From: Azolla caroliniana
Lineage: Eukaryota > Plantae > Polypodiophyta
Assembly (NCBI GenBank): GCA_043228905.1
Contig: JBHGNT010000008.1
Coordinates: 12,710,001-12,774,000, forward strand
Reading direction: 5' to 3'
DNA length: 64,000 bases
Part shown: positions 8,851-55,282 of the stretch, piece by piece
Layout: every line of letters begins with the position of its first letter
How positions within the stretch are numbered: the stretch's first letter is position 1
The notes under the pieces: generated by a model
Told to the model about the DNA's origin: nothing
Database searches by the model: none
The model's input: the letters and a program-made list of their open reading frames with translations, nothing else
Translations under genes and position numbers: made by a program

Positions 8851-11640
8851 TATCTTGACTCTCCATGGCTAGTTGGAATTGGTCATACCCAGAGTATAGG
8901 TCTCCGGTGGAGTATATCGCGCATCCGGCAAAGGCTTCCACAAATTTATCCACTATCGGACTGACTCCGGAGTCTGAATCGTGACCTTGTTCAGCAGTTG
9001 CAAATTTTGAATGAACCGGAGTGACCCACTCTTCTTCGGAATCGTAAACCATCGATTTGAGTATGGGGCATTTGATGGCTCTAGAATCCCCATCTCCACC
9101 TTCTCCTTGAGCAAGTCAAGTATTTTCGGAATATACACCCGTGGCACCAGAATCGGCTTCAGGTTCCACGACACATGTTCAATCTTGAAGATCACCATCG
9201 GCTCCACTTTCTTCAGATCGACACACCCTATCTCTCTTGATGTGAATGCAAATGATTTTCCATGCTGCTCCAACATCTCACGAAATCTTTCTTCTTCCTT
9301 TGGTAACAGGAACCTATCTCCACCGATCCAAAGTTCCATAGACTTTCGATATCCATAGACTTTCGAAGTGTTGGATCTCCCAAAACTTCTTTCCTCTTTT
9401 GTTCACTATTGGAAGGTAATGGTCCCGTAGATGGTTTCATCATCTTTTCTGTGGTCTTGTATTTCGTATGTACCATTGCTTCTTCTTTGCGGAGCACATC
9501 CAGCCCCATTTTCGCAATAATCTTGTACATCTTGACCAATTCCACCGGAACTACCTGATCTCCTTGGCTATTCTCTTCCACAAGCTCTTCAAGTCGTTGT
9601 AGTGTGCTCCCATAGAACACTTCTTCGACTACTCCCATGATTTCTTCATCCTCTTTTATGATTGATGCAGACTGTAGCTCATCCTGCATCTTCTGGAGTT
9701 CTTTCTTCATTTCTCTGGTCACGACCATGTACGTAGATGCCCCATTTGGACTGATTCGCACTTGTTTCGCTCCGAGAGTTTTCTTCCTATGTGGGGTATC
9801 AGGGCTTCTCGGACTATCACTTCCCCACTCTGCAACAGTCCGCTTTAAAAATCCATTTATGTTTGGGACAAGAGCTCTATCTTGTTCCTTTCGTGATTCG
9901 ATGGCACAGTTAGGAATTGGATGGTTTTCCCTCCGCCTTGGCTCCGAATCTGTACCAATGCCGCTCTGCTATCTAGCACCTCTGTTTCCATCCGTGAAGC
10001 CGTGATATAGGGTTGCCCGAGGATCACGGAATGTGAGACCTCATCTTGCCCAAAGAAATTTTGGTCAATCTCCACATCTCCGATCTTCACTGTCACATCT
10101 GGACAAGCCACAAATAGGTCTTCCATTGCTTTAGTGGTTGCCTAGATCTTCCATCCATGATTGGTGTTAATAGGCCACTTCCCCTTCCAGTAGAACTCCA
10201 TGGACATCAGATTGATCTCTGATCCATGATCAATCAATGCAACTATGAGCTCTTTGATGTTTCCAATTGGGACCGGAGTCTCCGTAGTTGCTTGTGCCCA
10301 GTGTGACTTTGTGTAGTGAGAGTTTGGAACATCATCCTCCACTTCCATGTCATTCATTACAGTATTCGCATTCACCCTTGGAGCGTTCGATTCTTTTGTA
10401 GCTTGCCTCTTTCTCTTCACGAGGTCCACGAGGAGATCGTGGAACTCTTTCTTTGCTATTCCGAGCAATTCACGGAGAGAAAATTCCACCAGACTGTCAA
10501 GGATTCTCTCTTTGAGCACCTTCTTTAGATTTGTCAGTTGTTCGATATTCAACACGAGTTTGAATGCTAGAATCGTTTTCCCTTTTCCTTTTCTTTCGGA
10601 ATTCCAGCTCTCTGGTGTCTTCGATGGTCCGACCGCATCATCCATGCGTCGTCGTTTCTCATCTACATACACCTCATGTAATTGGCATAGGGCGTAAACG
10701 CTATTCTTGTCTATGGGGCACTACCATCTTGTAGCCTCTCGGATGCCTTCCACAGTGCTTCGGATCTCATCAGAGTCAGTTTTCTCGGAGATTTCTAGCA
10801 CTTCCATCCAAAAAGACGACTTCGCTCTAGATGTCTCTCGCACACGTATTCCTGCGGTAGTCGCATAGTTGCTTTTTGCTGCAATCTCCTCCTCTAGGAC
10901 CTTCTTCATGCCACCCTTTCAGAAGTTCAGTCGAAGTGGCTTCCAGGAGTCCATCGAATGGATCCAATTTCCCTCATAGTAGATGAGATCCCGTCTTAGA
11001 GCCTCCTTCTACTCATTGCAATCTTTCCGATAATGTTCGGTGCTATCGCACCATTTGCATCGACGGTCCATATACTTCGACCTCGTGGGATGGTCTTCTG
11101 ATTTCTTCACCATGGAAATCTTGAGATTTTCCATCTCTTTCAGCAATTGCTCGATCGTGGTCACATCGATTCCCTGGTTGGTCGTAGTCTCCCAAGGTCG
11201 TTGTTGGTGATCTTCCAATCCGTATCTTGGTCTCAAGATTAGTTTTGAAATTCTCTTTTCTTGACTACCGAGCCATTACCCCTCTTTGTGTATCGCGCAA
11301 CGATGTCCCGCATGTTTTCCCATGTATTGGTGAGGCCACTCTCAATAGTCGTATCCTCTAAGTACTCCAAGATCTTTCTGGTCCCGGACGTCCACAGCTC
11401 GTAAGAACGTGATCACTGTGTCTGGTGCGATGATAGCTTGATCTCTCGCAGACAACCTCCCGAATTGACTTTCGAATGCCAAAAACACATTGAGGACCTT
11501 CTGTCATGAATAGTACTAAGGCAGAGAGGGAATTAGTACTAAAGAAGAGAAGTACTATTAGTACTAAGAGGACGGGACTGCATAAGATTCCCGAGAGAGA
11601 GAGAGAGATGATGATAACAACTAATATATTATGTGAAGGA

Positions 11641-14600
11641 TGTTAGAGGTTGGCGCTTTCCAAAACCTTCACCTCTCGGCCACAACCGAGGAAACACGAA
11701 TCAATGCAGTAGTAAATCGAAAACACAGAGAGAGACTCGAATGCACAGGGTTTAACGTGGAAAACCCTAGACGGGAAAAACCACGGGAGTGCAAGACTCC
11801 AACTATCACTATACGCAGGGAATGTACAATGGCGAGCTGCAAGGCGATGACCTTGAGCTCGCTGTCCTCGCCACAGGCGGCGGTATTACACAGAGGCGTC
11901 GATCTCTTCCTTTCTCTCTCTCTCTCTCTCACTCTCTCTCTCTCTCGGCTGCTCTCACTTCGCTCCCACTAAGTAGAAAACAGAAAAATGAGCAACAACA
12001 TCAAAACTGTTTGCCCTAAGTCATATTTATACACATATGACTTTCGGGCTATTTACAAATATAGCCTCAAGGGCCCTTGGCAAACATATTCATAAATATA
12101 TCCCCGCATCCGGATCTCTCTCCGGGTACATTCATCATCCGGCTCCGTAGCCGGGGTCTTCATCATCCGGATCCGGAACCGGGTCTTCATCATCCGGCTC
12201 TTCGTTCCCGATTCCCGGACATCCGACCATCCCATCCGGAGGGACCGTAATCCCAACAAACTCCCCCTTCACTTCGGCATGGGATGTCTTTCCAGTCCGA
12301 CCCTCTTCCGGCACGCTTCCAGCTTGTCGTGTGTGAGCACTTTGGTCAGCATATCTGACCCGTTCTCGTCCGTGTGGATCTTCGTCAACACGAACTCCTG
12401 GTCTTCTATCCTTTCCCGGATCCAGTGATATCTTCGCTGGATGTGCTTCGTCCGGGAGTGATAGGCCGCGTTCTTCGCAAGGTGGATGGCACTCTGACTG
12501 TCGCAGTAGAGTCGGTACTCCTCCTGCCGGATACCGAGCTCTCTAATGAAGTCCTTCATCCATATTATTTCCTTGTCGGCTTCAACAGCCGCCATGTACT
12601 CCGCCTCCGTGGTTGACAACGCAACCGTCTTCTGCAGCCTCGACTGCCACAAAACAGCTCCCCCTGCATACGTCATCACATACCCTGATGTGGACCGGCT
12701 GGTATCTGCATCAGCCGACATATCCGAATCGGTAAAGCCGTCGAGTTCAGGCTTACCGGAGCCGAATCGGAGGCACACGTTTGCCATGCCCTTCAGGTAT
12801 CGGAGTATCCACTTGGCCGCGTTCCAGTGCTCTTTGCCGGGATTGCTCATGTACCGGCTCACCACTCCGACTGCATATCCTATGTCCGGTCTTGTACACA
12901 CCATTGCGTACATCAAGCTTCCGACGGCAGAGGCATATGGTACTTTCATCATGTCCTCCTTCTCAGCCTTTGTCTTGGGGCTTTGCTTGCTAGACAACTT
13001 GCAGTTTGCCGGGAGGGTGGTCCCGACCGGTCTTGCTTCCGACATGTTGAACCGGTGAAGCACCTTTGTCACGTACTTCTCCTGTGACAGCCACAACTGC
13101 TTCTTCTTCCGGTCCCGGATGATGTGCATCCCTAGTATTTGCCTCGCCGGACCCAGGTCCTTCATTGAGAAGGTTCGGTGAAGCGCTTTCTTCAGCATCC
13201 GTATCTTGACCTGGTCCCGTCCGACGATCAACATGTCGTCCACGTACAGGAGGAGTATTAGAAAGTCTCCTCCTTCGAACTTCTTCACAAACACGCAGTG
13301 ATCGGACTGCGTTTTGTGGTACCCTTCGTCGGTCATGAAGGAGTCGAACTTCCGGTACCACTGCCGGGGAGCCTGCTTTAGTCCGTAAAGGCTCTTCTTC
13401 AACCGGCATACCAGGTGCTCCTTCCCTTTCTTCTCGAATCCTTCCGGTTGCTGCATGTAGATCTCTTCTTCGAGGTCACCGTGAAGGAATGCCGTCTTCA
13501 CATCCATCTGTTCTACCTCGAGGTCCGTGCTTGCCGCTATGCTCAACACCGTCCGGATGGAGGTCATCTTCACTACCGGGGCAAATATCTCATCGAAGTC
13601 AACGCCCTTCTTCTGCTGGAACCCCTTCACCACGATCCTGGCTTTGTATCTCGGGGGGTTTCCGGCATCTCCCGGTTTCAGCTTGAACACCCACTTGTTT
13701 CGAAGTGCCCGCTTTCCTTTCGGCAACTCCACAAGTTCATATGTGTGGTTCTCATGCAGGGAATCCATCTCCTCCTGCATGGCACTTAACCACCTGCGGC
13801 TATGGGTGTCAACCTTTGCTTCTTCAAAACTCTCCGGCTCCCCCTCATCGGTTAGCAGCACGTGCTCTGGTTCCGGAAATCTCCGGGGGGCCCTTCTCTC
13901 TCTTAGAGGATATCTCCGTTCCGGAGCTTCGGTAACCGGCTCCTCCGTTTCCTCTTCATCCGAATCCATTTCGGGATCGGGACCGGTTCCGGTATCAGTT
14001 TCATCTTCCTCGGCCGGTTCTGTTTCTTCACCATCTTCGGCCGGATCCTCGAGTGCTAACCGGTCCCTTGCCGGTCGGGACTCCTCCTCGTAGAGTTGAT
14101 CCTCACCGGTCGACTTGGAGCTCTTCATCTTCTTCTCCGACTCCCAGTCGGCGAGTGTCTTGTCCTCCATGAAGATGATATCACGACTCCGGAATATCTT
14201 TTTGTCGACCGGGTCCCATACGCGGTAGCCGAACTCATCATCGCCGTAACCGAGGAATATGCATGGCCGGGTCTTTGGATCTAGCTTTCCTCTCCAGTCC
14301 TTTGCCACATGCACATATGCGAGACACCCGAACACCTTCAGATGCCGGTAGGATACTTCCCTACCGGTCCACACTCTCTGCGGCGTGTCTCCGTCCAAAG
14401 GTACTGAGGGTGATCTGTTTATCACGTATGTCGCCGTCGACATTGCCTCAGCCCAAAACCCCTTGGGTAATTTCGCATGCGCCAGCATACTCCGGACCCT
14501 CTCCATTATGGTCCGGTTCATCCTCTCGGCCAGCCCGTTCAGTTCCGGCGTCTTCGGCACAGTAAACTCGAGCCGGATTCCCTTCGAGCGACAATACTCC

Positions 14601-16991
14601 TTGAACTGCCCCTGGTATTCCCCTCCGTTATCCGCTCGTATCGCTTTCAGCTTCTTGCCGGTTTCCCTTTCCACTCTCGCGTGGAGTTCTTTGAAAACGC
14701 ACAACACTTGGTCCTTTGTCTTCAACGGTGCCGTCCACAGCTTCCGGCTGTGGTCATCAATGAATGTCACGAAGTACTGGGCTCCGCCATGTGACTTCGT
14801 TTCTACTTGACACACGTCAGTGTGCACCAACTCCAATGGTGCGCTACGTCTCGTCGGTGGCCTTGAGTGGAAGGAGGTTCGGTTCTGCTTACCGGCCAGG
14901 CAATCAGTGCACTTCTCCAGGTGCACGTGCTTCACTAGAATAAGGTTGTCTTCTGCAAGCCTCTTCATCCCCTTTTCACTCATGTGGCACAGTCTCTTGT
15001 GCCACAGCTCACCGGCAGTGTCGGCTGCCACGTTCAACTCCTCCGGACACAACCAGGCATTCATAAGGTACAGTGTGTTGACTTTCCGGGCCCGAGCCAC
15101 TATCAGGCTCCCCTTGTTGAACTTCATTACGCAGTTCCGGATGCTACCTGTGTAGCCTTCATCGTCTAGCCTCCCGGCCGAAATCAGGTTCAATTGAACC
15201 TCCAGAACGTGTCGGACATCCTTCAGCAACATTTTGCATCCGGTCGAGGTTGTCAACCACACGTCTCCTATGCCGGCAATCCGGCACGTACCTTCATTTC
15301 CCATCCGAACACAGCCATGCTCACCGGCTGTGTAGGATGAGAAGTATCTTCTTTCCGGGGTCAGGTGGAACGACGCTCCGGAATCGACCACCCAGGTAGT
15401 CTCGTCGCCGGCAATGTTTAGTTCACCTTCTTCGGTGATGAGCATGATCTCCTCTTCACTTGCCGCGAGTGCCGTCGTTCCTTTCCGGTCCTGCCCTCGC
15501 CAATCCAAACCATTCCAGTCCGTGGCTCCCCGGTAAGCACCGTTCCGTTCCGAAGACTTCTTCGAATCGGTATCGTCGGCTCCGTTGTCTTTTCGGTAAT
15601 GCCGACAATTCTTTCGGAAGTGCCCCGGCTTCCCACAGTGGAAGCATGTGGGCCTTCCTCTTGATTGCGATCGGGTCCCCGACTTCTCCCGTCTTTGCGG
15701 ATTCCGGTTCCGTTGTCTTCCCCGATCCGATTCGGTAAGCAACATCTTCGGATCGGAGGCCGGTTCTTTATCTCTCCGATGCGCTTCTTCGTTCAGAATG
15801 CTTGTCTTTACCGTTTGTAGGGACAAGTTATCTTCGGTGCAGGAGGTGCTGAGAGTCACCACCAAGTTCTCCCAGCTTTCCGGCAATGTACACATCAGGA
15901 TGATGGCTTGCATTGCATCCTCCAACGGGAACTTGATCGCCGCAAGCTGGTTCACGAATCCCATGAACATGCTTACGTGTTCCACCATACTCTCGCCGTC
16001 CCGGTACTTGAGGTTCACTATCTTCCTCATCAGGGAGGTCCGGTTCAACGCATTCTTCCTCTCGTAGAGGCCCGACAGCTTCCGCCACATCTCATATGCG
16101 TTGGTGTCGTTCGCCACATGTTGTAGAACGCTCACGTCGACGTATTGCCGAATGGTTGCAACGGCCTTCCGGTTCAGAAGCCTCCATTCCGTCTCAAGTA
16201 CCCCCTTGGGTATTTCCGACCTGTCGATCGGTTCATACAGGTCCCGAACAATGAGCAGATCCTCCATCTTTATCTTCCAGTCGGCGTAGTTCTGCGCATT
16301 CAGCACCATCATCCCCGGCTGCCCGCTGCTACCGCCTTCCATTTTCTGCACTGCAGTCGCTCTGATACCAGATTGTTAGAGGTTGGCGCTTTCCAAAACC
16401 TTCACCTCTCGGCCACAACCGAGGAAACACGAATCAATGCAGCAGTAAATCGAAAACACAGAGAGAGACTCGAATGCACAGGGTTTAACGTGGAAAACCC
16501 TAGACGGGAAAAACCACGGGAGTGCAAGACTCCAACTATCACTATACGCAGGGAATGTACAATGGCGAGCTGCAAGGCGACGACCTTGAGCTCGCTGTCC
16601 TCGCCACAGGCGGCGGTATTACACAGAGGCGTCGATCTCTTCCTTTCTCTCTCTCTCTCTCTCTCACTCTCTCTCTCTCGGCTGCTCTCACTTCGCTCCC
16701 ACTAAGTAGAAAACAGAAAAATGAGCAACAACATCAAAACTGTTTGCCCTAAGTCATATTTATACACATATGACTTTCGGGCTATTTACAAATATAGCCT
16801 CAAGGGCCCTTGGCAAACATATTCATAAATATATCCCCGCATCCGGATCTCTCTCCGGGTACATTCATCATCCGGCTCCGTAGCCGGGATCTTCATCATC
16901 CGGATCCGGAACCGGGTCTTCATCATCCGGCTCTTCGTTCCCGATTCCCAGACATCTGACCATCCCATCCAGAGGGACCGTAATCCCAACA
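11641..16991 (-). mobile_element. Full-length, apparently intact Ty1/copia element (family B, Tnt1/Tork-like)
   Basis: 618-bp LTRs at 11641-12258 and 16374-16991, about 6 transitions by eye. TSD AAGGA at 11636-11640/16992-16996. PBS 16359-16370. PPT 12259-12268. Confidence 0.98.
12269..16351 (-). CDS. Intact copia Gag-Pol polyprotein, 1360 aa
   Basis: Single ORF with CFHCGKPGHFRKNC, WVVDSGAS, HHCC and DDE integrase, YVDD, FTDSD and SDMLTK. Confidence 0.97.
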   Translation of the reverse strand: MQKMEGGSSGQPGMMVLNAQNYADWKIKMEDLLIVRDLYEPIDRSEIPKGVLETEWRLLNRKAVATIRQYVDVSVLQHVANDTNAYEMWRKLSGLYERKNALNRTSLMRKIVNLKYRDGESMVEHVSMFMGFVNQLAAIKFPLEDAMQAIILMCTLPESWENLVVTLSTSCTEDNLSLQTVKTSILNEEAHRRDKEPASDPKMLLTESDRGRQRNRNPQRREKSGTRSQSRGRPTCFHCGKPGHFRKNCRHYRKDNGADDTDSKKSSERNGAYRGATDWNGLDWRGQDRKGTTALAASEEEIMLITEEGELNIAGDETTWVVDSGASFHLTPERRYFSSYTAGEHGCVRMGNEGTCRIAGIGDVWLTTSTGCKMLLKDVRHVLEVQLNLISAGRLDDEGYTGSIRNCVMKFNKGSLIVARARKVNTLYLMNAWLCPEELNVAADTAGELWHKRLCHMSEKGMKRLAEDNLILVKHVHLEKCTDCLAGKQNRTSFHSRPPTRRSAPLELVHTDVCQVETKSHGGAQYFVTFIDDHSRKLWTAPLKTKDQVLCVFKELHARVERETGKKLKAIRADNGGEYQGQFKEYCRSKGIRLEFTVPKTPELNGLAERMNRTIMERVRSMLAHAKLPKGFWAEAMSTATYVINRSPSVPLDGDTPQRVWTGREVSYRHLKVFGCLAYVHVAKDWRGKLDPKTRPCIFLGYGDDEFGYRVWDPVDKKIFRSRDIIFMEDKTLADWESEKKMKSSKSTGEDQLYEEESRPARDRLALEDPAEDGEETEPAEEDETDTGTGPDPEMDSDEEETEEPVTEAPERRYPLRERRAPRRFPEPEHVLLTDEGEPESFEEAKVDTHSRRWLSAMQEEMDSLHENHTYELVELPKGKRALRNKWVFKLKPGDAGNPPRYKARIVVKGFQQKKGVDFDEIFAPVVKMTSIRTVLSIAASTDLEVEQMDVKTAFLHGDLEEEIYMQQPEGFEKKGKEHLVCRLKKSLYGLKQAPRQWYRKFDSFMTDEGYHKTQSDHCVFVKKFEGGDFLILLLYVDDMLIVGRDQVKIRMLKKALHRTFSMKDLGPARQILGMHIIRDRKKKQLWLSQEKYVTKVLHRFNMSEARPVGTTLPANCKLSSKQSPKTKAEKEDMMKVPYASAVGSLMYAMVCTRPDIGYAVGVVSRYMSNPGKEHWNAAKWILRYLKGMANVCLRFGSGKPELDGFTDSDMSADADTSRSTSGYVMTYAGGAVLWQSRLQKTVALSTTEAEYMAAVEADKEIIWMKDFIRELGIRQEEYRLYCDSQSAIHLAKNAAYHSRTKHIQRRYHWIRERIEDQEFVLTKIHTDENGSDMLTKVLTHDKLEACRKRVGLERHPMPK

Positions 16992-18895
16992 AAGGATAAG
17001 TCTAAAATGGCTAAGAGGCTTAAGACTGGCGTTGAACCAATTTGGTTCAACATAATGCCTAGTGCCTTCTTTTATAGTGTTCTCAAGAGTAATCCTGAAG
17101 CTTCTAGAATGTTCCAGAGAAATCTATAATATATATTCATTTCCTATAATAAAACGTAAATGAAAATAATATTCTACGTATTACAATAGATGGGCTAATG
17201 GTCAAGAGCTCGACCCATATAACATAAGGTGATGGGTTCGAGGCTTGCCATATCATGACACTATCTCCCCCTTAAGCCGACGAGTGGAACGAGTCGGCGC
17301 TAATTGCAGACCGGGTTTGTCCGGATACTTTCGATGGAACTCAGCAAGAAGATCATGAGCATTGGCGACATGCTCGATGGGTTCCCAAGGACGTTCACTC
17401 GGACTATAGTCAAGCCAATCGACCAAATAATAAAGTTTGTTGCGAACAAATTTAGAGTCGAGGATGGCAGCAACTTCATAGTCCGGGTCGGTGTCTAACT
17501 CAAGTGGGGGCGACGGTGGTGTAACATGATCGGGAAGAGTGTTTGCTTTATAAGGTTCAAGAAGAGAACTAAGGAAGACCAGATGTATCCGAAGATGCGG
17601 AGGAAGATCAATGCGGAACGTGACATCATTAACCTTACCAATAATACGGAAAGGACCGAGTCGGCGATAATCCAACTTCTCGCACGGTCGAGGATTGGTA
17701 GGTAGCTCCGGGGTGTCGATCACCGACCAACGAGGATGAGAACTGGTATAAGCGTAGAATGGGGAGACTCGAGTCGAGGAGTGAACAACATTATTATACG
17801 CAAACTCCGCAAACTAGAGAATCTCGGCCCAATCGTCTTGTTGATAACTCAAGAAACACCATAGATATTGCTCCATCGTTTGGTTTGTTCGTTCCGCCTG
17901 CCCATCGGTCTGAGGATGGTAGCCGGAGGAGAGGTTGCAAGAGACCTTGAGCATCTTGAACGGATGCTGCCAAAATTTGGAGACAAATTGCGGTCCTCGA
18001 TCATTGATGATACTGTCTGGGAGGCCATGATGCCAAAATACCTCACGCATGACAAGGGCGGTGGTTTCCTCGCTAGTGATGGCCTTAATACACGGCACAA
18101 AATGTGCCATCTTCATATATCAATCGACGACGGTTAAGATAGCATCGAACCCCTTCGAGTCCAGCAGATCTGTGATAAAATCAAGACAAATAGATTGCCA
18201 CGGCTTACATGGAATCGGTAAGGGTTCCAACAAGCCATATGGATGGTGTCGTGGCATCTTTGCTCGGTAGCGAGCATCACAGGTCCGAACGTAGTCGTCA
18301 ACAAAACGTCGCATATGGGGCCACCAAAAGGATCGTTGAATTATATCCAACGTCTTAGTGCTACCGAAATGTCCCGCCATATGGGTGTCATGACAACTTT
18401 GGACGATTTGAAGGCGATAGGAGCAATCGGGGACATATACAAGCTTTTTAAAGAATAACAAACCATCATGATATTCGAATTGTCGGTAGTCCATACCTGG
18501 TTGTTGAGACTGGGAACAGGATGCCCAAGAGGTATCAATGTGCGCCAGAATGTCTTGAGCAAAATTGTCCATCTTCAAATTCGCACGTATGGTGTCGATA
18601 ATCTGGGAATCCATTGGGGTGTGAAAAATCCACGTTGTGTGCAATCGTGTTGGTCCCAAGATTACTTGTTTCCCTGGTCGATATGCGATTTTGAAATCAA
18701 AACGTGTGAGGAATTGAGCCCACCTAGCTTGTCGTCGATTTAGCACACGAGCGTTCTGGAAATAAGAAAGATTCTTGTGATCACTGAAGACGATGACCTG
18801 ATGTGGAGAGCCCTCCAAAAAATGCCGCCATTGCACAAATGAATCCACGATGGCTAATAACTCCTTGTCATGTATTTCGTAGTTGATTTCCGCAT

Positions 18896-20050
18896 GGCAA
18901 AAGCGTAGGTCCTCTTCGGTAGGGAGTGTTCTTTGGAGTGCTCCCATCGTCAACCACGAACTCGTTTTGTCCATTTCCATGACCCGATCAATGACCTGGT
19001 CTATTGTGCTGGTCCGAAAATCTATGACAGCACACACGGTTCGGAGAGGTTCCAGGAGTGCTGCCAAAAATACCGCTTTCGCATCTGCTTCTGGCGGTGC
19101 TCTAGTGAGTTGACTATGCATTGTCTAGAACTGGATAACGAACTGCTAAATGGTTTCAGACGGGTCCTCCCGTGTCGTATAAAATTGGCCAACAATCTCT
19201 CTTTGATCCACCTGCCTATGGAAGAAGTGTAGAAATCTAGTCTTTAAATCCTCAAACGTGACGATACTGCCGGGGAGGTGCTTGGAGGGCCAACGTGTCG
19301 CAAGACCCTCTAAAGTCATGCCGAATTCTGCAATTTTTTATCATTCTACCTCAGCTTCGTTCAGTCGGTGGGAGACATGATTCACCTCCCAAGCTTGGAG
19401 AAATGCGTTTACATGGGCTTCCACGTCCGGGTCATCCCGATACTTCGGATATTGGTACGGCATTATGTCGTCATCTTCTTATGCTGTTGGGGCTGGTGTC
19501 AGAACTCGCTCCTCCTCTTGGTGTTTTGTTCGAAGGTCATTTTGTCTGGAGTTTCCGGTTTTGTTGTTTCCAGGTCTGGTTTTGTTGTTGTGGGCTCTAG
19601 TTTTGTTGTTTCCGGCTCCGGTGTCGTTATGTGGTCCAACTCGTCGTCTTCTGAGTCATCCGGGGTATCATGGCTACTACGATAATTCGATTGGACCTTG
19701 TGTTCGCCGTCCGAATCCGATTCGATGGCGGAGAACGCTTCCAAACCATCGTCTCTTGTGGCAAGTGTCTACAAAATGGACTCTGCTTCCTACAGACTAC
19801 TCCGACTACTTCCTTCGTACGGGTGGTGGTTCTATTGCAATCGGAGTGACTCCTCCGCGACCCGCCAAATCACTCTGGAAAAAGACCGATTCGACCGAAT
19901 CTCCTCCGCCACCTGCTGGTAAGCCTCCCGCTTCCGCAGTCTCTCGGCGAGTCTTCTCGCTCGCTCGGCCACTAGGTCATTCGTTGTTCTATTCATCCAT
20001 TCCCCCGCTATTCACTGCACTTTTTTGTAGGAATTGTGGTCGCAAAAACT
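18896..20050 (-). pseudogene. Gag fragment of another gypsy-type element joined to the chromovirus RNase H
   Basis: Retrotrans_gag-like translation (DLKTRFL..F, AKAVFLAAL..PLR) with 21-bp repeats encoding PETTK. Abrupt switch to AEINYEIHDKE near 18895. Confidence 0.55.
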
Positions 20051-27649: not shown

Positions 27650-29103
27650 GACAGTACTAATATTGTAGAGAGACATTGGCAAATTTATCAAGTATAGTGT
27701 CTTGAGAGGAATAATAAATTTAAGCATGTCTTAATTGGGGACAATGAAACCACCACTTACATAAGAGGATTTATTATATAAAATAGGACTTGTAGAGGCA
27801 AGAAATATGTGAGTTGGGTAGATTCACACCCTATGTAAATTGTAGGGATCAAAGGTCAAGATTTAAAGAGGTCAAGAGGATATTAGAAAGGTATGTTGAC
27901 TGATAACAACACATTGCATATTGTGAATGAGGTCTAATATTGGTTTAGACTATTGAGATTGACCACTCCGATTCTATGGTACAACATCTCGCTCCAATGC
28001 TCATATTGTGATTGCGAAGACCTCAAAAGTAAATCTAAGAATTACATGGAATTCGGATGATCATTGACATGCATATACCACCCTTATGTGTGTCATTATC
28101 AAATTTATAGATCATGCGACTCAAATGTGAAAGGATGATGCCACAATGCAAGTAGGCCTAGAGTTGACACAAGAAGGAGAAGTTGACATGAATGCAGGAG
28201 TCGAAGAAAGGGAACGGAGGAAGTCAGAAGCACTTCAACTGCTTGAGCAAGCATCATGAGCAATGAAAAAGGCTGATGTTGAGCATTGTCAGCAACTCAT
28301 GGTAGATGTGTAAAATCATAGGTGGATGCAGTAGCTTCTTCCAATATACCATCTGGAGGTTGAATAAACCAGAAGCAACAAATTGGTGCAAAAGAGGAGC
28401 CACCATCAAAGTGTTGCAAGAACTTATTGGCAACTCCCCAAACAAAACCAAAACATTTTCTTTTGTGCCGGTGTCGTGAAGAAAACCGTCCACAAGCGGA
28501 ATCGGTGCGCCGGAGCGTAGGAACCAGCTCTTCATGCACGTACGCCTTATGTTGTACATAGAAGATCCTAGGTAGGTAGTTTCGGTGGGTAGGAAGTTAA
28601 TGGGAAACGGCTCCTTCCTTGCCTATAAAAGGAGGAAGACGAGAAAGGGGAAAGGGGGATCGCAAAGCAAGAGAGGACGAAGTGTTGTCGGATTGTGGGC
28701 CGAAGGCTTCTCTCTCTTCCAAACTCCATAGCTTCTTTCTGTGTAGGTTTCGGGAGGCTCGCGCTGCTCTGAGGAAAGCCTGAGTGCTTCCGGCAGCACC
28801 TCCAACCTACTCCTTTCTTTCTGTGCGTTTACGAACAGGCATCGGCATATGTTCGCCGACCTGTTCAGTTGTAACCGACTTCGTGATCTTGTTGTTTGTC
28901 TTGTTTATATATATTTTACATACATTCGCGTCTCTCTGTGTCGCTGTCGCACTCGCGTCTCTGTGTCGAAGGGCCGTGTCCCTGTGAATCTACGCTCGCA
29001 CCTTGTGGGTCTCTTCCCCTCTCCTTTTCTCTCTTGCTCTTCGGTACAAGACCCCCGAGGTCCCACCTCATTCCACGCATCCGCGAGGAATACCTCGACA
29101 TCT

Positions 29104-29121
29104 TGGTGAACCCGACGTGAA
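29104..29121 (+). promoter_or_regulatory. Primer-binding site complementary to the 3' end of cytosolic tRNA-Trp
   Basis: TGGTGAACCCGACGTGAA lies 3 nt after the LTR and is the reverse complement of TTCACGTCGGGTTCACCA, the plant tRNA-Trp 3' end as I recall it. Confidence 0.85.
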
Positions 29122-31259
29122 GGAGGCGGCAGAAGAGCAGAAGATGAAAGGGTCGGATCTTGCGGAGGCCATGGCTTCGACCGTGGATCGGATATTGAGC
29201 GCACGCGAGGGCTCCGGCGCCCTCGACAGAGCCATTGAGGCGGTCGTCGGTACGATCGGCCGGTTCAACGGAAAGGATGCCACGAAGTATTTGGCGTCCT
29301 ACGGGGCAGAAATGCTGATGCGGGACATTCCGAAAGAGAGGCGTCTTGCCGGGTTCCCTCGAGTGGCGATGCTGAGCATCCACGCGGAGGTGCTCGAGGT
29401 ACGGGCGGAGAGCCGTACCTGGGAGGAGTTCGAAGGCCGACTCCTAGAAAAATACGGGTTGGATGACGCACTCCGGCTTTCGAAACGGGACTTCATGGAA
29501 TGGGTGGAGTCCCCCGGCAAGGGAAGAAACGCGTCGGCACTCCTCCGGGAGTTCGAAGAACGCTTTGCGCGCCTTTCGGCGCTTGACCGAACCGTTCTGG
29601 ATACGAGCCGGGTCCTACTGTTCGTCAAGTCGGTGGACGAGCGGAACCGGGATCAAGTCGGCTCCTTGCTGGAAACCGAAGATGGGCTGACGACCGATTG
29701 GGCTGCGGTTAAGAGAGCCTGTGGCCGTTTCGACAAACGGCGAGAATGGGCTGACAACGGGGCGGCTGGTGCGGGCTCTGTCATAGCAAGGAGGCTTGAA
29801 CCGGCACCGCAAGGGCGAAGGGAAGAAACCCAAGAATGGCTAGAAACCGGTCCGGCTTCGACCGGCATGGTCAGTGGCTCGTCCGGAGGAGCAGCGCTGG
29901 AGGAGTTGACGCGGGCAATAAAGGATCTCCAGATCGCCCAGACTCGAAGGGAAGGCGGCAAACCGGCTCGTGACCGACGGCCGGTAGCAGGGAACAGGTG
30001 CATGTGGTGCGACGAGGTCGGCCACATCCGGAAGGACTGCGGCGATTTCGCAGAAGCGTTGAGGAACCGGGTGGTGTACCTGTGGGAAGGTCGGGTGCAC
30101 GCCGGCGACACCAGAAGGGCCCTAAACCGAAACGACGGGCGAGGAGGTATGAAGAGACTGATGGAAGAGGCAGTGGTCCGACACGTGGAGGCCATCCACT
30201 ACTCGGCGTCGGTCGGTATTCGGGTCGGGGGCAGCGAGGCCCGAAAGGAGAGCAAGGACGGGTTCTGGTCGGCAATGCTGGAAGGCCTTGCCGGCGCACG
30301 GCTAAGGAAAGACGAAACGGACCGCGCTGAGAGACGGGTCCGGGAAATAACCGGGTGGAGCAATCCGGTCGAGGAGAAGACGGGTTTCGTAGAAGCCGCC
30401 TACCGGAACTACGAGGCTCTGGTAGAAGACAAACGAGTGGGGAAAGCCGGAGCGGCCGGGCCCTCACAACGGTACGAGACCCGATTCGGGCAACGACAGA
30501 ACGATGCCGGTGGGTCCAGCTCGCAAGATAACCCCAGGAAGGGCGGATACCGACTGGGGACGGAAATAGAAAGGACTACGGACCAACGAAAGGTCCTAAA
30601 AGAACGGATCCTCGACAGCAAAGTGGAGCTGTCATTGCGAGAGGTGCTAGGGATCGCAAAGAAGGAGTTCCACGACTCCATTGTGGACCTGGTGAAACGG
30701 AAGAGGCTGTCGACGGAGACGGAACTGGAAAGGCCGGTGGAGGTGCAGATGACGCACATCGACGACATGGTGATGGAAGACGAGTGGGCGGAGAGCCACT
30801 ATTCGAGGCCACACTGGGCCCGAGCGACCACGGAGACCCCGGTAAAGATCGAAGATGTTCAGGAACCGGTGGTGGCATTGGTGGACCACGGTTCGGAAAT
30901 AAACCTGATGTCCATGGACTTCTATAAGAAGGGAAAGTGGCCGATCAACACCAAGCACGGGTGGAAGATACGGGCGGCGACGTGCGCCACTGAGGAACTG
31001 CACGGGCCTGCCCGAACGTGCGAGTCAAGATCGGCGACATCGAGATTGACCAACACTTCTTCGTACAGGAGACGTCCTCGCACCCGGTCATATTAGGGGA
31101 ACCATACATCACGGCGGCGCGAATGGAGACCAAGGTGCTGGACAACGGTTCGGCCTACGCGAGGGTCAAAAGCCAGGACGGGCGCCATTCGGTTCAATTT
31201 CTGACTGTGCGGCCGAACCACGAGAGGAACCGTGAATCCCTCGGTGGCGAGAACCGGGA

Positions 31260-31325
31260 GGATTTTTTGAGAGGGCTGCCAAGGCGTGGGGCCGAGACAG
31301 CCCGGACACTCGGGAAAGACCCCAC
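31260..31325 (+). promoter_or_regulatory. Predicted -1 programmed ribosomal frameshift signal (slippery heptamer plus pseudoknot) between PR and RT
   Basis: G_GAT_TTT, 6-nt spacer, stem 1 GGGCTG/CAGCCC, stem 2 GTGGGG/CCCCAC. The -1 frame is open into RT. Same architecture at 9791-9854 on the minus strand. Confidence 0.8.
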
Positions 31326-32233
31326 AACTGTACGATAGAACCGAAACCGAAGGAACCCTGTACGATAGGTAGGAAATTTTGTTTCTCCGACAACGGAGGG
31401 TGTATGATAGTCGGCATCGTTGGCCGAGAAAAGACAAGGGCGGAAGTGCGACTTCGAGCGTGCGGAGTTCTCGGCCCGGACGAGGAAATCAGCGGAGCCG
31501 TGGAGGCGGTCTCCTTCGACGACACCTTGGGGATGCTGAGGAAGGTAGCTGGAGAAGACCTTAACGAAGACCGGATGATACCGGTATGTTCCGAAGAGAT
31601 GTACGAAGTCATCGCGAACTTCAGTCGGGGGCTCGGGTCGGATCGGACGGCCCGAGTTAGCACGAAGTACAAGACTGTGGACCGGAAGGTAAGGCCAGTC
31701 GCGGCACCCTTACCTGAGGGCAGCGAGTCCCGGATCAGAGGGGTTGCGTCGGACCCCAGTTTGCGAGATCCGGTTTGCATAGGACACACCTTCACCGACG
31801 GAACGCTCCGGGAGCTCAAAATCGGTGGGGGCGGGTTCCTACTGCCGGCGGAGGAAGACCGGTTTCGGAGAATGCTCGGAAGGCACGAGAAAGCCTTCGC
31901 ATTCTCACCGGAAGAGATCGGGTGCGTAGACCCGACAATCGTGGAGCCGATGGTGATATTCACGGTACCGCATGTGCCGTGGAATCTCAAGCCGATTCCA
32001 GTACCGAGAGCTCACATCCCGAAGTTGATGGAGCTATTGAGGCAGAAAGTCGATATGGGCATTCTCAAACCGTCGAGTGCCCCATACTCGAACCGATGGT
32101 TTACCGTACCAAAGAAAAACGGAACATTGCGCTTCATTCAAGACCTGCACCGGTCAACAGAGTGACCATTCGGAACGCAGGAATTGGACCGACCATAGAC
32201 GAGTTCGCAGAGGCCTTCGCCGGAAGGTCGATT

Positions 32234-32867
32234 TGTTAGAAATTGACGCTTTCCAAGCCTTCGCCTCTCGGCCACAACCGAGGAAACACGAATCAATGCA
32301 ACAGTAAACGAAAACACAGAGAGAGACTCGAATGCACAAGGTTTAGCGTGGAAAACCCTAGACGGGAAAAACCACGGGAGTGCAAGACTCCAACTATCAG
32401 TATACGCAGGGAATGTACAATGGCGAGCTGCAAAGCGACGACCTTGAGCTCGCTGTCCTCGCCACAGGCGGCGGTATTACACAGAGGCGTCTACCTCTTC
32501 CTTTCTCTCTCTCTCTCACTCTTTCTCTCGGCTGCTCTCACTTCGCTCCCTCTAAGTGGAAAACAGAAAAATGAGCAACAACTACAAAACTGTTTGCCCT
32601 AAGTCATATTTATACACATATAACTTTCGTGCTATTTACAAATATAGCCTCAAGGGCCCTTGGCAAACATATTCACAAATATGTCCCCGCATCCGGATCT
32701 CTCTCCGGGTACATTCGTCATCCGGCTTCGTAGCCGGGTCTTCATCATCCGGATCCGAAACCGGGTCTTCATCATCCGGATCCGGAACCGGGTATTCATC
32801 ATCCGGCTCTTCGTTCTCGATTCCCAGACATCCGACCATCCCATCCGGAGGGACCGTAATCCCAACA
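32234..32867 (-). mobile_element. Solo LTR of copia family B inserted in the gypsy RT
   Basis: Matches the LTR at 11641-12258. TG..CA ends. TSD CGATT at 32229-32233/32868-32872. RT text AGRSI|YSVGDLYSG resumes after it. Confidence 0.96.
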
Positions 32868-35800
32868 CGATTTACTCGGTCGGTGATCTGTACTCGGGGT
32901 ACGACCAGTTCCAACTAGCCGTGGAGAGCAGAGACATTACGACGATGTGAACTCCCCTCGGCCTAGTGCGAATGTGTACCCTGCCACAAGGAGGGACTAA
33001 CTCGGTGGCCCACATGGTGAATGCAATGAACAAGGTACTGAGGGATTGCATCCCGGACATCACCATGCCGTTTCTAGACGACATCCCTATCAAAGGGTGC
33101 CCGGTGGAAGAGAAGGACGAGACAGTCGGGCCGAATGGATGCCGACGATTCGTGGCAACACACATCGACGACTGCGAGAAGGTGCTACAAAGGCTAGAGG
33201 ATCCGAGGCTCACCTTCTCCGGGGAGAAATCGGCCTTCGGGCAATCAGAAATCCTGGTGGTCGGACACCTATGTGGACCATATGGCCGGAAGCCGTCTCC
33301 GGCAAAGGTAGAAGCCATCTCCGCGATGAAGACCGACTGTAGCTCGGTTACGGAAGTTTGGAGGTTCCTGGGGGCATGCGCATTCTACCACATATGGATC
33401 CCGCATTACGCCCACGTTGCGGAGCCGCTATACGGGTTGCTGAAGAAAGGGCGAAAATTCGAGTGGCGAGACGAGCACACGGAGTCGGTCCGGAAGCTGA
33501 AGGAAGCTCTTGCGGCAGCACCGGCGCTCCGGAAGGCTGTCTACGAGAAGGGTGCCCCGGTATACATAACGGTGGATACGAGCCCGACCGGGATCGGATG
33601 GGTCGTCAACCAAGAAGACGAGGACGGCATTCGGTTCCCGATCCGATTCGGCGCGAAGGTCCTCAGTGAGCGACAGCGAGGGTACGCCCAAGTTAAACGC
33701 GAACTCTGGGGTATCGTTTCGGCAGTAAAGGCCGACAAAGACTACCTGATCGGGACAAAAGTGGTTATCGAGACGGATTTCCTGCCAATTCTCGGCATGG
33801 TTTCCGGATGCGCGACGCCGGACCTGGCGATGCTTAGGTGGATAGCGTACATCAAGTCCCTGGACCCGGAAATACGACACATTTCCAGAAAGGACAACGC
33901 CATGGCCGACATGCTTTCGAGGGCGAGGTTTGATGACGAGGGCGGTTTCGGAGGACGAAGAAGTCGGCGTGGACTTCTTCGAGGCGGCGTACGTGACGAC
34001 CGATGGGATGAGCACTCCGGCACTTAACAACTTCGACGAGAGCAAGTACGACGGCGAGTGGCTCCAGATCGGTGGATTTTTGAGGACAATGACGCCGGAT
34101 GCGTCATGGACGAGGGACGAGGCCAACCGGATCCGGAAGAAAGCATACCGATTCTTTCTCCGGGACGGATACTTATGGAAGCACCCGAAGAAGAGGAACG
34201 GCGTCCCGCTCCGGGTGGTGGCGATGAAGGAAGATAAGGAGGAGCTGCTGACGGCTTACCACGACAGCCCTTGGGCTGGTCACCGTGGAACGTGGGCCAC
34301 GTTCGAGAAGATAAAGGGGAAGTACTGGTGGTTGGGACTGTACCGGGACGTGCATCGGTTCGTGACAACTTGCGAGAGCTGTTAGATGCACTCCATAGTC
34401 CGACATCGGGACGGGCTTCACCCTACGTACCCTCCGACCATCCACTTCAAATGGATGGTAGACCTGGTGACGATGCCGATGGGAGTAGGACAGATGCGGT
34501 ATCTGGTCCTGGCTCGGGAAGATCTGACGAACCAGGTGGAAGGCCGGGCCCTTCAGAACAAAACGACTGCAGCCGTATGTCGGTTCCTGATCGAGGACGT
34601 GATATGCCGGTACGGGTGTGTCGGGAAGATCGTGGCTGATCGCGGGGAGTTGGACGCCGAAGAGGCCGAGGAGCTGTTCGACCGGTTAGGAGTCAAGCTC
34701 TCGCTTACCACTGCGTACAATCCAGAGGTGAATGGAAAGGTGGAGCGCGGACACGGACCGGTCGTCAAGGCGTTAGTTCGGGCATGCGGAGGTCAAGTCG
34801 GGAATTGGCCGCGGCTGTTGCCTTACGCGTTGTGGGCGGACCGAACTACGCACAGTTCAGTGACAGGATTCATGCAGGCAGAGCTCATGTTTGGGCAGAA
34901 GCCGATCATGCCGATGGAACGTACAATCTTCTCATGGGCAACCGTGGACTGGAGAAACGAGATGAGCCGGGAGGAACTATTGGCGGCGCGCATACGTCAA
35001 CTCGAGCGAAGGCCGAAAGACATGGAGTAGGCTGCGGAAAAGCTTCGGGAAGCAAGGATGAGGAACAAAGCCCGGTTCGACTGAACGCACCGGCTCCGAC
35101 CGAAGAAGATCGAGGAAGGCGACTGGGTGCTAGTCTATGACAGCAGCCTCGACAACCAGCACCGAGCGACACGGAAGTTCGCAAGAAGGTGGTTCGGGCC
35201 TTACGTGGTACAAAGCGCCAACGATAACGGGACGTACCATCTGGCGGAACTCGACGGCACGAGAATGGCGATACCGGTAGCTGGGAAGCGGATCAAAGCG
35301 TTCAAGAAGCGTCACGACGACGAGCCGGATCCGATTAACCTAGACCGCGACGACGAACGATCCGAAACCGAGGAAGAACCGACGGGCGGGGACTGAAGAC
35401 TGGACCGGTTTTCTCCGTCCCAACTCAATTTGGCGCATGCCGGTGGATGCGCGGTTAGGTGGGGGCGGATGTCGTGAAGAAAACCGTCCACAAGCGGAAT
35501 CGGTGCGCCGGAGCGTAGGAACCGGCTCTTCATGCACGTACGCCTTATGTTGTACATAGAAGATCCTAGGTAGGTAGATTCGGTGGGTAGGAAGTTAATG
35601 GGAAACGGCTCCTTCCTTGCCTATAAAAGGAGGAAGACGAGAAAGGGGAAAGGGGGATCGTGAAGTAAGAGAGGACGAAGTGCTATCGGATTGTGGGCCG
35701 AAGGCTTCTCTCTCTTCCAAACTCCATAGCTTCTTTCTGTGCAGGTTTCGGGAGGCTCGCGCTGCTCTGAGGAAAGCCCGAGTGCTTCCGGCAGCACCTC

Positions 35801-36487
35801 CAACCTACTCCTTTCTTTCTGTGCGTTTACGAACAGGCATCGGCATCTGTTCGCCAGCCTGTTCGGTTGTAACCGACTTCGTGATCTTGTTGTTTGTCTT
35901 GTTTATATATATTTTACATACATTCGCGTCTCTCTGTGTCGCTGTCGCACTCGCGTCTCTGTGTCGAAGGGCCGTGTCCCTTTGAATCTACGCTCGCACC
36001 TTGTGGGTCTCTTCCCCTCTCCTTTTCTCTCTTGCTCTTCGGTACAAGACCCCCGAGGTCCCGCCTCATTCCACGCATCCTCGAGGAATACCTCGACACT
36101 GGGTTACTCGAGTTACCCAAAGGAGGCAAATTATTAGAGTAAGCATAATTTATCTCAGTTGGGTTATTGGTGACTGTTGAAGGGGGTAGAACCGGGTTAT
36201 CGGTGATAGTTAAAAGGGGGACAGAGTCGGGTTGCTGGTGATAGTAAAGGGGGTAGAGTTGAGGTTACATGTGAAAGTTGAATGGGACAAGAGTGGCGTT
36301 ATTGATGATAGGGCCGTGTTGCTACTGGTGACAATAAAAGGGGGGACACCGAGGCTGTCTGTCGAATCCATCCAGGCTATCTATCGGCAACAAGGGCGCT
36401 TTTTTGGATACAAATCTCATGGGCAATGTCTGTCCGTGGCCACAGATCCCCTCCCTTGCCACGCGCGCCGGCCTCATTATGATTTGA

Positions 36488-50145: not shown

Positions 50146-50791
50146 CTCTGAGGCTCCATGAAAACCTTCTCCTACTTCGTGAACTGCTTCTGCGGCCTTC
50201 TCTTTGGTTGACTTAGTTGTGCCTAAGCCCTTCTCAGCTGCTTACTCCTGTACAACTCCAAGTTCTAGTCACTGAGGAATCCCTTGTCGTAGATCTCGCA
50301 AGCAAACTGATTTGTGGCCATCACTGTCTTGGGCGACAATCCGATCACCTCTGAAGAGGTATAGACACGTAAGAGTGTAACACGCGTCACGTTTTATGCT
50401 CGATTATAATGAAAAAAGAAACACAAGAAACACAAGAAACACACACAATGGCACAACAAAGATTACACAAGATTTAACGTGGAAAAACCCTCAATGAGGG
50501 AATCAACCACGGGACAAAAGTCCAAAACCAATCCACTATCAAGAAAGAGATACAACACAAAGTACAAGTTCTACTTCTAGATATACTAGAAATATGTAGA
50601 GATATGTAGCATAATACTACCGACAAAAATGGTACAATAATCCAAAGGGATAAGACTATCTCTCAAGCATATAGTAGAAAAGAAGAGAGAAGAAAACCCG
50701 GATAAGAATGTCCACAAGTCGAAGTAGTAGCCGTGTAGATCTCACGTTGAGTAGCGGAGATGGAAAGAAGATTAAGAGTAGATGAGTCGAG

Positions 50792-50881
50792 CACCAAGCT
50801 TCACCAAGCTCCACCAAGCTTCACCAAGCTCCACCAAGCTCCACCAAGCTCCACCAAGCTTCACCAAGCTTCACCAAGCTT
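50792..50881. repeat. Nine tandem decamers CACCAAGCT(T/C) in the copia C LTR, repeated at about 55759-55848
   Basis: Directly visible, same array in both LTRs. Confidence 0.95.
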
Positions 50882-51262
50882 CTCTATGCTTCACAATGCT
50901 TCACTCTCCTTCACGCTCTCATACTTTGTTCTCATCTCTTCCCATATATATATATCTCCTTTCCACCTTCTCTTTGTCTCTCTCAAAACAAAAACGGTCG
51001 TTTTGTTTTCTTTTACTCTTTATTATTATTATTACTATTATTATTTTCTTTCTTTACTCACTAAAAAACGTAACTTACATTTACCCTTTTAAAGAATAAA
51101 GTAAGGGTAATAATTACTAAAGAAACAAAACTTTTGTTTTGTTTCATATTACTATCTAATAATAATAATAAAAAATGTTATTAAAAAAAAACAAAACAAA
51201 ATAGTGACCGGATAATTAACAATCTCCCCCTCCGGTCACACAAGGAGAGAATTGCTTGTGTC

Positions 51263-54200: not shown

Positions 54201-55282
54201 GGCACGTGTCGTACTTGATGTAGAATCAGCTTGAATCCCGTGTTGGTTTGCAAGCAAATGGTTCCTGTGCCGACTACCTTTGCAAATCCATCATTCCCCA
54301 TCTTCACAACACCATAGTCACCTGGAGTGTAAGATGAGAAAAAATCCCTTCTGGACGTAACATGGTGGGAGGCACCACTATCAAGAACCCAAGTGGTTTC
54401 ATGGCTACTTATGTTAACTTCATTGTAACTTGTACATACAACAAGTAAATCATTAGAGGAAGCAACATTAACAGAATCGATATTGTCATTCACATTTTTC
54501 TTATCTTTCATGTAGTTCGACACCTTATTTTCCTTCTTCCATTTGAAACAATATTTCTTTATGTGACCTGTCTTACCACAAAAATGACAAACTAAATCTT
54601 TATATTTAGACTTTGACTTACTTCTACTTCTACCTTTGTTGTTTCGGTCATCGCTCCTCTTTTGGCTTCTTCCTCTATTTTCTGCAACGAAGGCGTCCAT
54701 GTTTGATGTTGCTCCTTGCGTCCTTCGCCGAATTTCTTCATTTAGAATTCCACTCTTCACAAGTTCCATTGTCATGCCTTCCTTAGGAGCCGCACTAGCT
54801 AGAGTAACCCTAAATGTTTCCCATGACTCGGGAAGAGTATTTAGCAACCATAAAGAAAGAACTTCTTCTTCAAACTTTATACCCATGCTAGACAATTGAT
54901 CAAAACATCCTTGAAACTCATTTAAATGATCTAAAACCGACTTATTTTCTTTATAAGTCAAATGCATTGCTTGTTTAAGTAAAAACAACTTATTGTTACC
55001 GGTTCTAGAAGCATATAAGGTTTCTAATTTATTCCACAAAGTCTTTGCATTTGTTTCATTCACAATATGATTCAAGACATTATCTCCTACCCATTGTCGA
55101 ATGAAAGCACATACTTGTTCATTTTCAAAATCCCACTCCTCATTATTTTTCTTTTCGGGTTTAATTTTTGCAAATATAGGTAAATGCATATTTTTAACAA
55201 AAAGCAAATCTTTCATTTTTCCTTTCCATTTTTGATAGTTCGTGCCATTTAAAACAACCATTGTTGATGTGTTTGCCTCCAT
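51263..55282 (-). pseudogene. Copia Gag-Pol in three pieces (55282-53084, 53063-52326, 52318-51263)
   Basis: CHFCGKTGHIKKYC, WVLDSGAS, SDNGGEY, QLDVKTAFL, YVDD, FTDAD, ADMLTK. Confidence 0.93.

Follow-up and report, generated by a model that had tools for sequence, protein, structure and literature searches.

How does a retrotransposon whose protease and reverse transcriptase (RT) lie in different reading frames reach its Pol proteins? The question is raised by a Ty3/gypsy element in the stretch of Azolla caroliniana DNA analysed here, which comprises 64,000 nt of contig JBHGNT010000008.1 (assembly GCA_043228905.1, positions 12,710,001 to 12,774,000) and is called the window below. Comparison of this element with its relatives makes it very probable that pseudoknot-stimulated -1 frameshifting operates between protease and RT. 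The features of the element are collected in Table 1.

Table 1. Features of the gypsy element and of the second, decayed family G1, in window coordinates.
Feature	Position	Strand	Remark
Target-site duplication, left	28468..28471		CCGG, 4 bp, NCGN type
5' LTR (TG...CA)	28472..29100	+	LTR-LTR alignment
Primer-binding site	29104..29119	+	seen in sequence
gag (zinc-knuckle-like motif, DUF4100) and N-half of protease	29144..31002	+
One-base frame break within protease	31003..31008	+	this copy only
C-half of retropepsin-fold protease and ORF1 tail	31009..31266	+	last residues Asp-Phe
Slippery heptamer G_GAT_TTT	31260..31266	+	frame of protease C-half, ORF 30994-31338
pol in the -1 frame: ~130-codon linker, then N-part of RT	31260..32233	+	broken near 32149 in the window copy
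6-nt spacer	31267..31272	+	first codon TTG here, stop in 54/57 related loci
Predicted stem 1, 5' arm	31273..31280	+	core as first annotated, 31273-78
Predicted stem 2, 5' arm	31286..31291	+
Predicted stem 1, 3' arm	31296..31303	+	core as first annotated, 31298-303
Predicted stem 2, 3' arm	31320..31325	+
Nested solo LTR	32234..32867		copia family of 11641-16991; 5-bp duplication on its flanks
Remaining RT, RNase H, integrase	32868..35396	+	in several broken frames
3' LTR	35470..36098	+	purine-rich tract ahead of it
Target-site duplication, right	36099..36102		CTGG, one transition from CCGG
G1, second, decayed family	9791..9854	-	heptamer 9854-9848, then TAA
G1 stem 1	9841-9834/9818-9811	-
G1 stem 2	9828-9823/9796-9791	-

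The element is bounded by LTRs identical at 621 of 638 aligned bases, and its domains follow the Ty3/gypsy order Gag, protease, RT, RNase H and integrase. Pfam identifies DUF4100 in ORF1, followed further along by RT, RNase H and integrase. In intact relatives, gag and protease form a single ORF of about 710-760 codons. The first-pass annotation had assumed the same for the window copy, which was mistaken, as a one-base break near 31003 splits the protease. The RT ORF that it had placed at 31404-32165 has to be qualified as well: the ATG at 31404 is not conserved, and RT is broken near 32149 before the nested LTR interrupts it. It has these lesions, and TTG in place of a stop after the heptamer; we regard this copy as decayed and do not expect it to be functional.

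Neither Pfam nor a PDB sequence search recognised the protease of the intact ORF1 proteins. In a fold search, the predicted structure of one relative, P0017 (pLDDT 81.9), matched Ddi1 and retroviral proteases with a best E of 4e-7, and on this model the domain ahead of the shift site is a retropepsin-fold protease. The active-site motif, at about 30890-30900 in the window, is D-H-G-S in most of the lineage and not D-T/S-G. Named homologues come from Physcomitrium patens and Riccia sorocarpa, the protease being 63-71% identical to P. patens proteins.

As for the lineage, the primer-binding site is putatively complementary to the 3' end of tRNA-Trp; no tRNA gene was found within the window. From its sequence features, the element is likely a Ty3/gypsy retrotransposon of the non-chromovirus Phygy lineage of REXdb. 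Like Phygy, it has a 4-bp NCGN target duplication (CCGG/CTGG here, with one mismatch), an interior filled by the coding region and no chromodomain or extra domain, as judged by the lack of such a Pfam match in four intact Pol frames. It differs in length, about 7.0 kb without the nested LTR against a listed 7656-9968 bp, a range taken from one species that makes a weak criterion. The entry for Phygy in REXdb gives the 4-bp NCGN duplication, tRNA-Trp priming and 'ND' for the ORF organisation (PMC6317226).

The window consists mostly of nested retrotransposons. A third related element lies on the minus strand at 61700-64000, where its RNase H-integrase part is cut by the end of the window; it is 81-84% alike to 33626-35311, and its own junction falls outside the window. 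The copia element at 11641-16991 belongs to the same family as the solo LTR nested in the gypsy RT; its polyprotein of 1368 aa is intact, and its LTRs are 99% alike where they were compared. Other copia elements, together with a gypsy RNase H-integrase fragment of a different kind, occupy 3068-8851, 50352-55925 and 17253-19124.

The DNA relatives used for comparison are 80 metagenome loci, the best 80 of 187, of which 79 belong to one related assembly set with many near-copies. After the protease and in its frame, exact G_GAT_TTT is present in 57 of these best 80 loci, a variant heptamer in 17 and neither in 6. The codon behind the exact heptamer is a stop in 54 of the 57 loci (TAG in 28, TAA in 16, TGA in 10), the remainder having TCG (2) or TTG (1). 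The stop directly behind the heptamer is also found in G1 and in 42 of the 43 RNA reads at 31268. In the window copy, the heptamer does lie at the place and in the phase originally proposed, and the -1 frame, described as opening upstream of it and running into RT, is open from 31236 to 32165. A stop at 31338, taken in the first-pass annotation for the end of the Gag-protease frame, is present in the window copy but peculiar to it, since the relatives stop directly behind the heptamer.

In 18 loci, Pol is open for at least 1000 codons from the site; it is in the -1 frame in 16 of them, in the -2/+1 frame in 2 and in frame 0 in none. RT, RNase H and integrase all fell in the respective Pol frame at the four loci scanned (L004, L054, L056 and L068). 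Intact L068 and L071 carry G_GAT_TTC. In five loci (L030, L033, L047, L055 and L073), the frame of RT with respect to the protease is 0 or +1; they are contigs of coverage ~2 whose -1 frame is short or missing, and we read them, from their sequences, as decayed copies with damage downstream. A protease in frame with RT, which was to count against the frameshift proposal, occurs in none of the best 80 of 187 loci.

The proteins end accordingly at the heptamer or close to it. Among the 120 homologous proteins listed, 57 end in x-Phe, 19 end five residues later and 3 in Val-Phe-x; the others comprise 20 that run on, 7 of short or odd form and 14 without the anchor. Asp-Phe makes up 59 of the 65 x-Phe endings among all 237 proteins. 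In most loci, the start of the open -1 frame is at most 1-12 codons from the heptamer. The junction combines two marks of a frameshift signal: ORF1 finishes on an in-phase heptamer of the X_XXY_YYZ type, and the ORF downstream is open in -1 from the site, with no conserved start of its own there.

A second class of junctions has an ORF1 longer by five codons and a stop inside stem 1 (L052:4288, L080:1569, and proteins of P. patens and Riccia), with heptamers that include G_GAT_TTC and G_GGT_TTT. Directly on the 5' side of the heptamer, a small hairpin is predicted in four of the eight loci folded (L004, L007, L036 and L068); one can be drawn at 31240-31258 in the window copy, and none is present in L025, L080, L054 and L056. 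According to these predictions, the hairpin is a possible upstream modulator of the slippery site.

Downstream of the site, the stems are predicted to form an H-type pseudoknot whose stem-1 core begins after 6 nt, within the 5-9 nt expected ahead of a stimulatory structure. G_GA heptamers and spacers of 5-9 nt are described as typical of -1 sites (PMC5009743). The spacer and stem positions of the first-pass annotation were all correct. Its 6-bp stem 1 is adequate as a core only, as the stem has 8-9 bp in relatives and contains a mismatch in the window copy. G1 shares heptamer, spacer and stem 2 with this copy and differs by a change from G-C to A-U at the third pair of stem 1, also as claimed. 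We scored pseudoknots with a crude stacking score of our own. By this score, no dinucleotide shuffle out of 400 reached the value of the window copy, nor did any out of 400 for G1. Ranked among all 10 GGATTTT sites of the window, the two element copies came first, at -28.8 and -32.7, followed by -21.5.

Covariation was examined in an alignment of 26 rows, picked for an open Pol frame and including the two window copies; the structure was read from the same sequences as were tested, which inflates the shuffle tests. For stem 1, both sides change in six of nine pairs and 91.9% of the cells pair, compared with 25-42% in slid registers, and 0 of 500 shuffles reached any of the measures. Because relatedness inflates the column test, the rows were cut to 12 sequence clusters and the partner arms swapped between them. 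Of 20000 permutations each, none for stem 1 and 8 for stem 2 were as good as the arms' own partners. Only partner swapping was applied to stem 2, because MAFFT left loop 3 ungapped and column counts were unsuitable. The 3' arm of stem 2 occupies different codon phases among the loci, and protein coding therefore does not explain this stem. Over the 26 rows and 12 clusters, both stems covary, in agreement with the conserved pseudoknot that the first-pass annotation had put forward for such a check.

One relative, L081, was obtained after the structure had been defined. It has the heptamer, the stop, the 6-nt spacer, stem 2 and a -1 frame of 909 codons; its stem-1 sequence is different and still pairs, with one internal mismatch, and 9 of 400 shuffles reach its score. 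This locus (CADCWO010000092.1) was the sole relative found among genome contigs, in a cyanobacterial bin, and is probably stray eukaryotic DNA there. The viral contigs searched yielded no relative. The pseudoknot finder returned no structure in five distinct sequences (L015, L019, L030, L044 and L067), and stem 1 of L049 is weak. Rfam has no family at the site, with three sub-threshold matches.

Between the shift site and a T-K/R-Y-K motif ahead of RT, intact loci have about 120-145 residues (31260-31650 in the window), and no Pfam family matches those preceding the motif. At 19 loci, picked for open frames, this linker is free of stops in the Pol frame, and each of the other frames contains 4-24. 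Its dN is lower than its dS in all 10 pairs compared; in nine of the 10, the first 22 Pol codons show less synonymous change than RT does, the exception being L004/L007. By these measures, the linker evolves as protein and not in the manner of an intron.

This bears directly on splicing, the explanation that Ogre brings to mind, where an intron between protease and RT would remove the stop (PMC6317226 describes such an intron in Ogre). Gene models of P. patens and Riccia do join the two frames: they account for 19 of the 20 run-on proteins, and most of them connect protease to Pol. They use at least five different joins, however, as expected of predictions. A CAG/GT is found at the shift site in L054 and L056 and at the start of stem 1 in L080; yet over 16 loci no donor is shared upstream of the stop, save for a GT supplied by a conserved Val codon, whose context is mostly poor. 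The non-coding spacer with splice sites that defines an Ogre-type intron between PROT and RT is absent, the linker being open in the Pol frame only and under purifying selection. The RNA data come from three poly(A) runs of a related organism, ~12% read, and represent a related family; 340 reads could be placed, for a depth of ~43 at the site. No splice joint appeared among these 340 reads, which are shallow and cover both strands, so that DNA carry-over or rare splicing may have gone unseen. The intron that had been named as a potential refutation is thus not seen, and splicing would leave the heptamer, the fixed spacer and the stems without explanation. We consider it very improbable.

Pol might also be made on its own from an internal AUG, by reinitiation, internal entry or a subgenomic RNA, with the structure serving that process or packaging. 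A Met is indeed present about 17-26 codons ahead of the conserved T-K/R-Y-K motif in 18 of the 19 loci. It lies ~100 codons past the site, though, and those codons are kept open and under purifying selection, in a frame that mostly begins close to the heptamer. Moreover, L025 has an intact Pol of 1174 codons with no Met before the motif, and no pile-up of read starts was seen in the shallow RNA data. This route is equally hard to credit. Least probable of all, to the point of being almost negligible, is polymerase slippage on the U run, by which some transcripts would gain a base and ribosomes would not shift. Most families do have a run of five or six T at the site, but the intact L068 and L071 have only three; no insertion in the T run was listed among the RNA reads at a threshold of 3 reads and 5%, and slippage of this kind needs no pseudoknot at a fixed spacer.

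The sequence comparison, which documents the frame layout, the conservation of site, stop and spacer, the covariation of the stems and the coding character of the linker, thus supports the initial proposal of a Gag-protease and a minor Gag-protease-Pol made by pseudoknot-stimulated recoding. That proposal did not include the stop immediately after the heptamer, the Phygy-like identity or the -2/+1 branch described below. In this frameshift reading, the Gag-protease frame ends at G_GAU_UUU, followed in most families by the stop codon, and RT, RNase H and integrase are in the -1 frame. The predicted H-type pseudoknot that lies 6 nt further on likely causes a backward slip of one base in a minority of ribosomes, which would yield Gag-protease-Pol. 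The RNA would fold as predicted and the Asp and Phe tRNAs would slip in tandem; the low yield would set the ratio of Gag-protease to Pol, and the protease would release RT and integrase.

One branch of the lineage appears to use the junction differently. In the sister loci L054 and L056 (support 100/99), ORF1 ends with CAG GTT TTT, one codon and TAG, the site being AG_GTT_TTT. Here the -1 frame extends for no more than 2 and 7 codons, respectively; RT, RNase H and integrase are encoded in the -2/+1 frame, which runs on for 1154 and 1101 codons. ORF1 of L056 is unbroken at 761 codons. The same predicted pseudoknot is kept 5 nt after the site (0 of 400 shuffles for each locus), with a spacer one base shorter than in the -1 relatives. 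This layout rests on the two contigs and on protein clusters: in the P0038 cluster (35), 5 of the 14 further members listed reach the end, all of them with Val-Phe-Asp. In the protease tree, midpoint-rooted, L054 and L056 fall inside a clade (100/97) with 11 proteins ending in Asp-Phe, which suggests that the branch is derived. Their placement in the Pol tree, also midpoint-rooted, is weak (77/68). P0054 and P0237, the latter from the liverwort Calypogeia fissa, end in Val-Phe-x and were considered as -2 members; they lie apart in the tree and were not counted, and by this tree the Val-Phe-x endings do not make up one clade.

The same pseudoknot probably drives a -2 shift at AG_GUU_UUU in this branch. 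RG_GUU_UUU is the arterivirus -2 site (PMC5644247), and at the HIV site the spacers that maximise -2 shifting are 1-2 nt shorter than those for -1 (PMC3458567). A +1 shift of tRNA-Phe on UUU_N would reach the same frame, which is mostly accessed by +1 shifting according to PMC5009743, and L056 offers UUU_U for re-pairing. L054 offers only UUU_G, however, and both loci retain the full AG_GUU_UUU and the pseudoknot, with the spacer shortened in the direction that favours -2. We hold the -2 route to be the probable one, +1 to be rather unlikely and any other route less likely still. It is about an even bet that one lineage with a single pseudoknot shifts by -1 at G_GAU_UUU with a 6-nt spacer and, in a derived branch, by -2 at AG_GUU_UUU with a 5-nt spacer. 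The arterivirus nsp2TF shift is similar in having AG_GUU_UUU in the right phase and a long ORF in the -2 frame, as in L054 and L056. In arteriviruses, however, the stimulator is a protein complex acting at a C-rich motif 10 nt downstream, and RNA structure is not involved (PMC5644247), whereas in L054 and L056 a covarying predicted pseudoknot lies 5 nt downstream in place of that protein stimulator.

If these readings hold, they supply the ORF layout of the lineage together with a pseudoknot-stimulated -1 signal at the protease-RT junction, and they imply an excess of protease as in alpharetroviruses. They also explain the inconsistent introns invented here by moss and liverwort gene models. 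L054 and L056 are matched natural cassettes for spacer length and site as determinants of -1 versus -2 shifting on plant ribosomes. A -2 shift in this branch would be a natural case, from a plant, of -2 frameshifting driven by RNA structure, and would put the rule that the size of the shift is set by spacer length to an evolutionary test.

The mechanism class itself is textbook; what appears new, on sequence evidence, is a plant protease/RT -1 signal and a probable switch from -1 to -2. Our literature search, largely limited to open-access papers, found no description of such a signal in plant retrotransposons, and the text of PMC7466625 on P. patens elements offered nothing on frameshift, ORF or splicing. 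The REXdb table shows no lineage with overlapping frames at the protease-RT junction; in Tcn1, Selgy and some SIRE, the overlap precedes the protease (PMC6317226). For plant elements, a 2003 survey reported in PMC5009743 had arrangements of the +1 type only. As a precedent for a pro/pol split, Dictyostelium Skipper was considered and set aside, being drawn in PMC5006619 as gag followed by PR-RT-RH-IN. The earlier generalisation that frameshifting elements shift before the protease is valid for the other plant lineages with overlapping frames, but a split after the protease is not unique. It is shared by Ogre and Retand, both plant Tat lineages, which differ from the present element in having at that junction a spacer or intron (Ogre) and an in-frame stop (Retand), as given in PMC6317226.

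The two viral parallels drawn at the outset were confirmed. Gag-Pro fusion is the layout of the alpharetroviruses RSV/ASLV, in which the protease belongs to Gag (PMC12789967; PMC5009743 has a sentence that puts it in pol instead). Access to pol in these viruses is by a -1 shift with a pseudoknot (PMC5009743), as proposed here. Unlike these, the present element is a plant LTR retrotransposon without env, with G_GAU_UUU, a stop directly behind it and a small predicted pseudoknot of two stems, no third stem being seen; the analogy is one of layout and not of membership. As for the heptamer, GGAUUUU-type G_GA sites are found in umbraviruses and dianthoviruses (PMC5009743), among them G_GAU_UUU in pea enation mosaic virus RNA2. 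These viruses have in common with our element the heptamer, the nearby stop and plant ribosomes; they differ in relying on hairpins with long-distance pairing, where a compact local H-type pseudoknot is predicted here.
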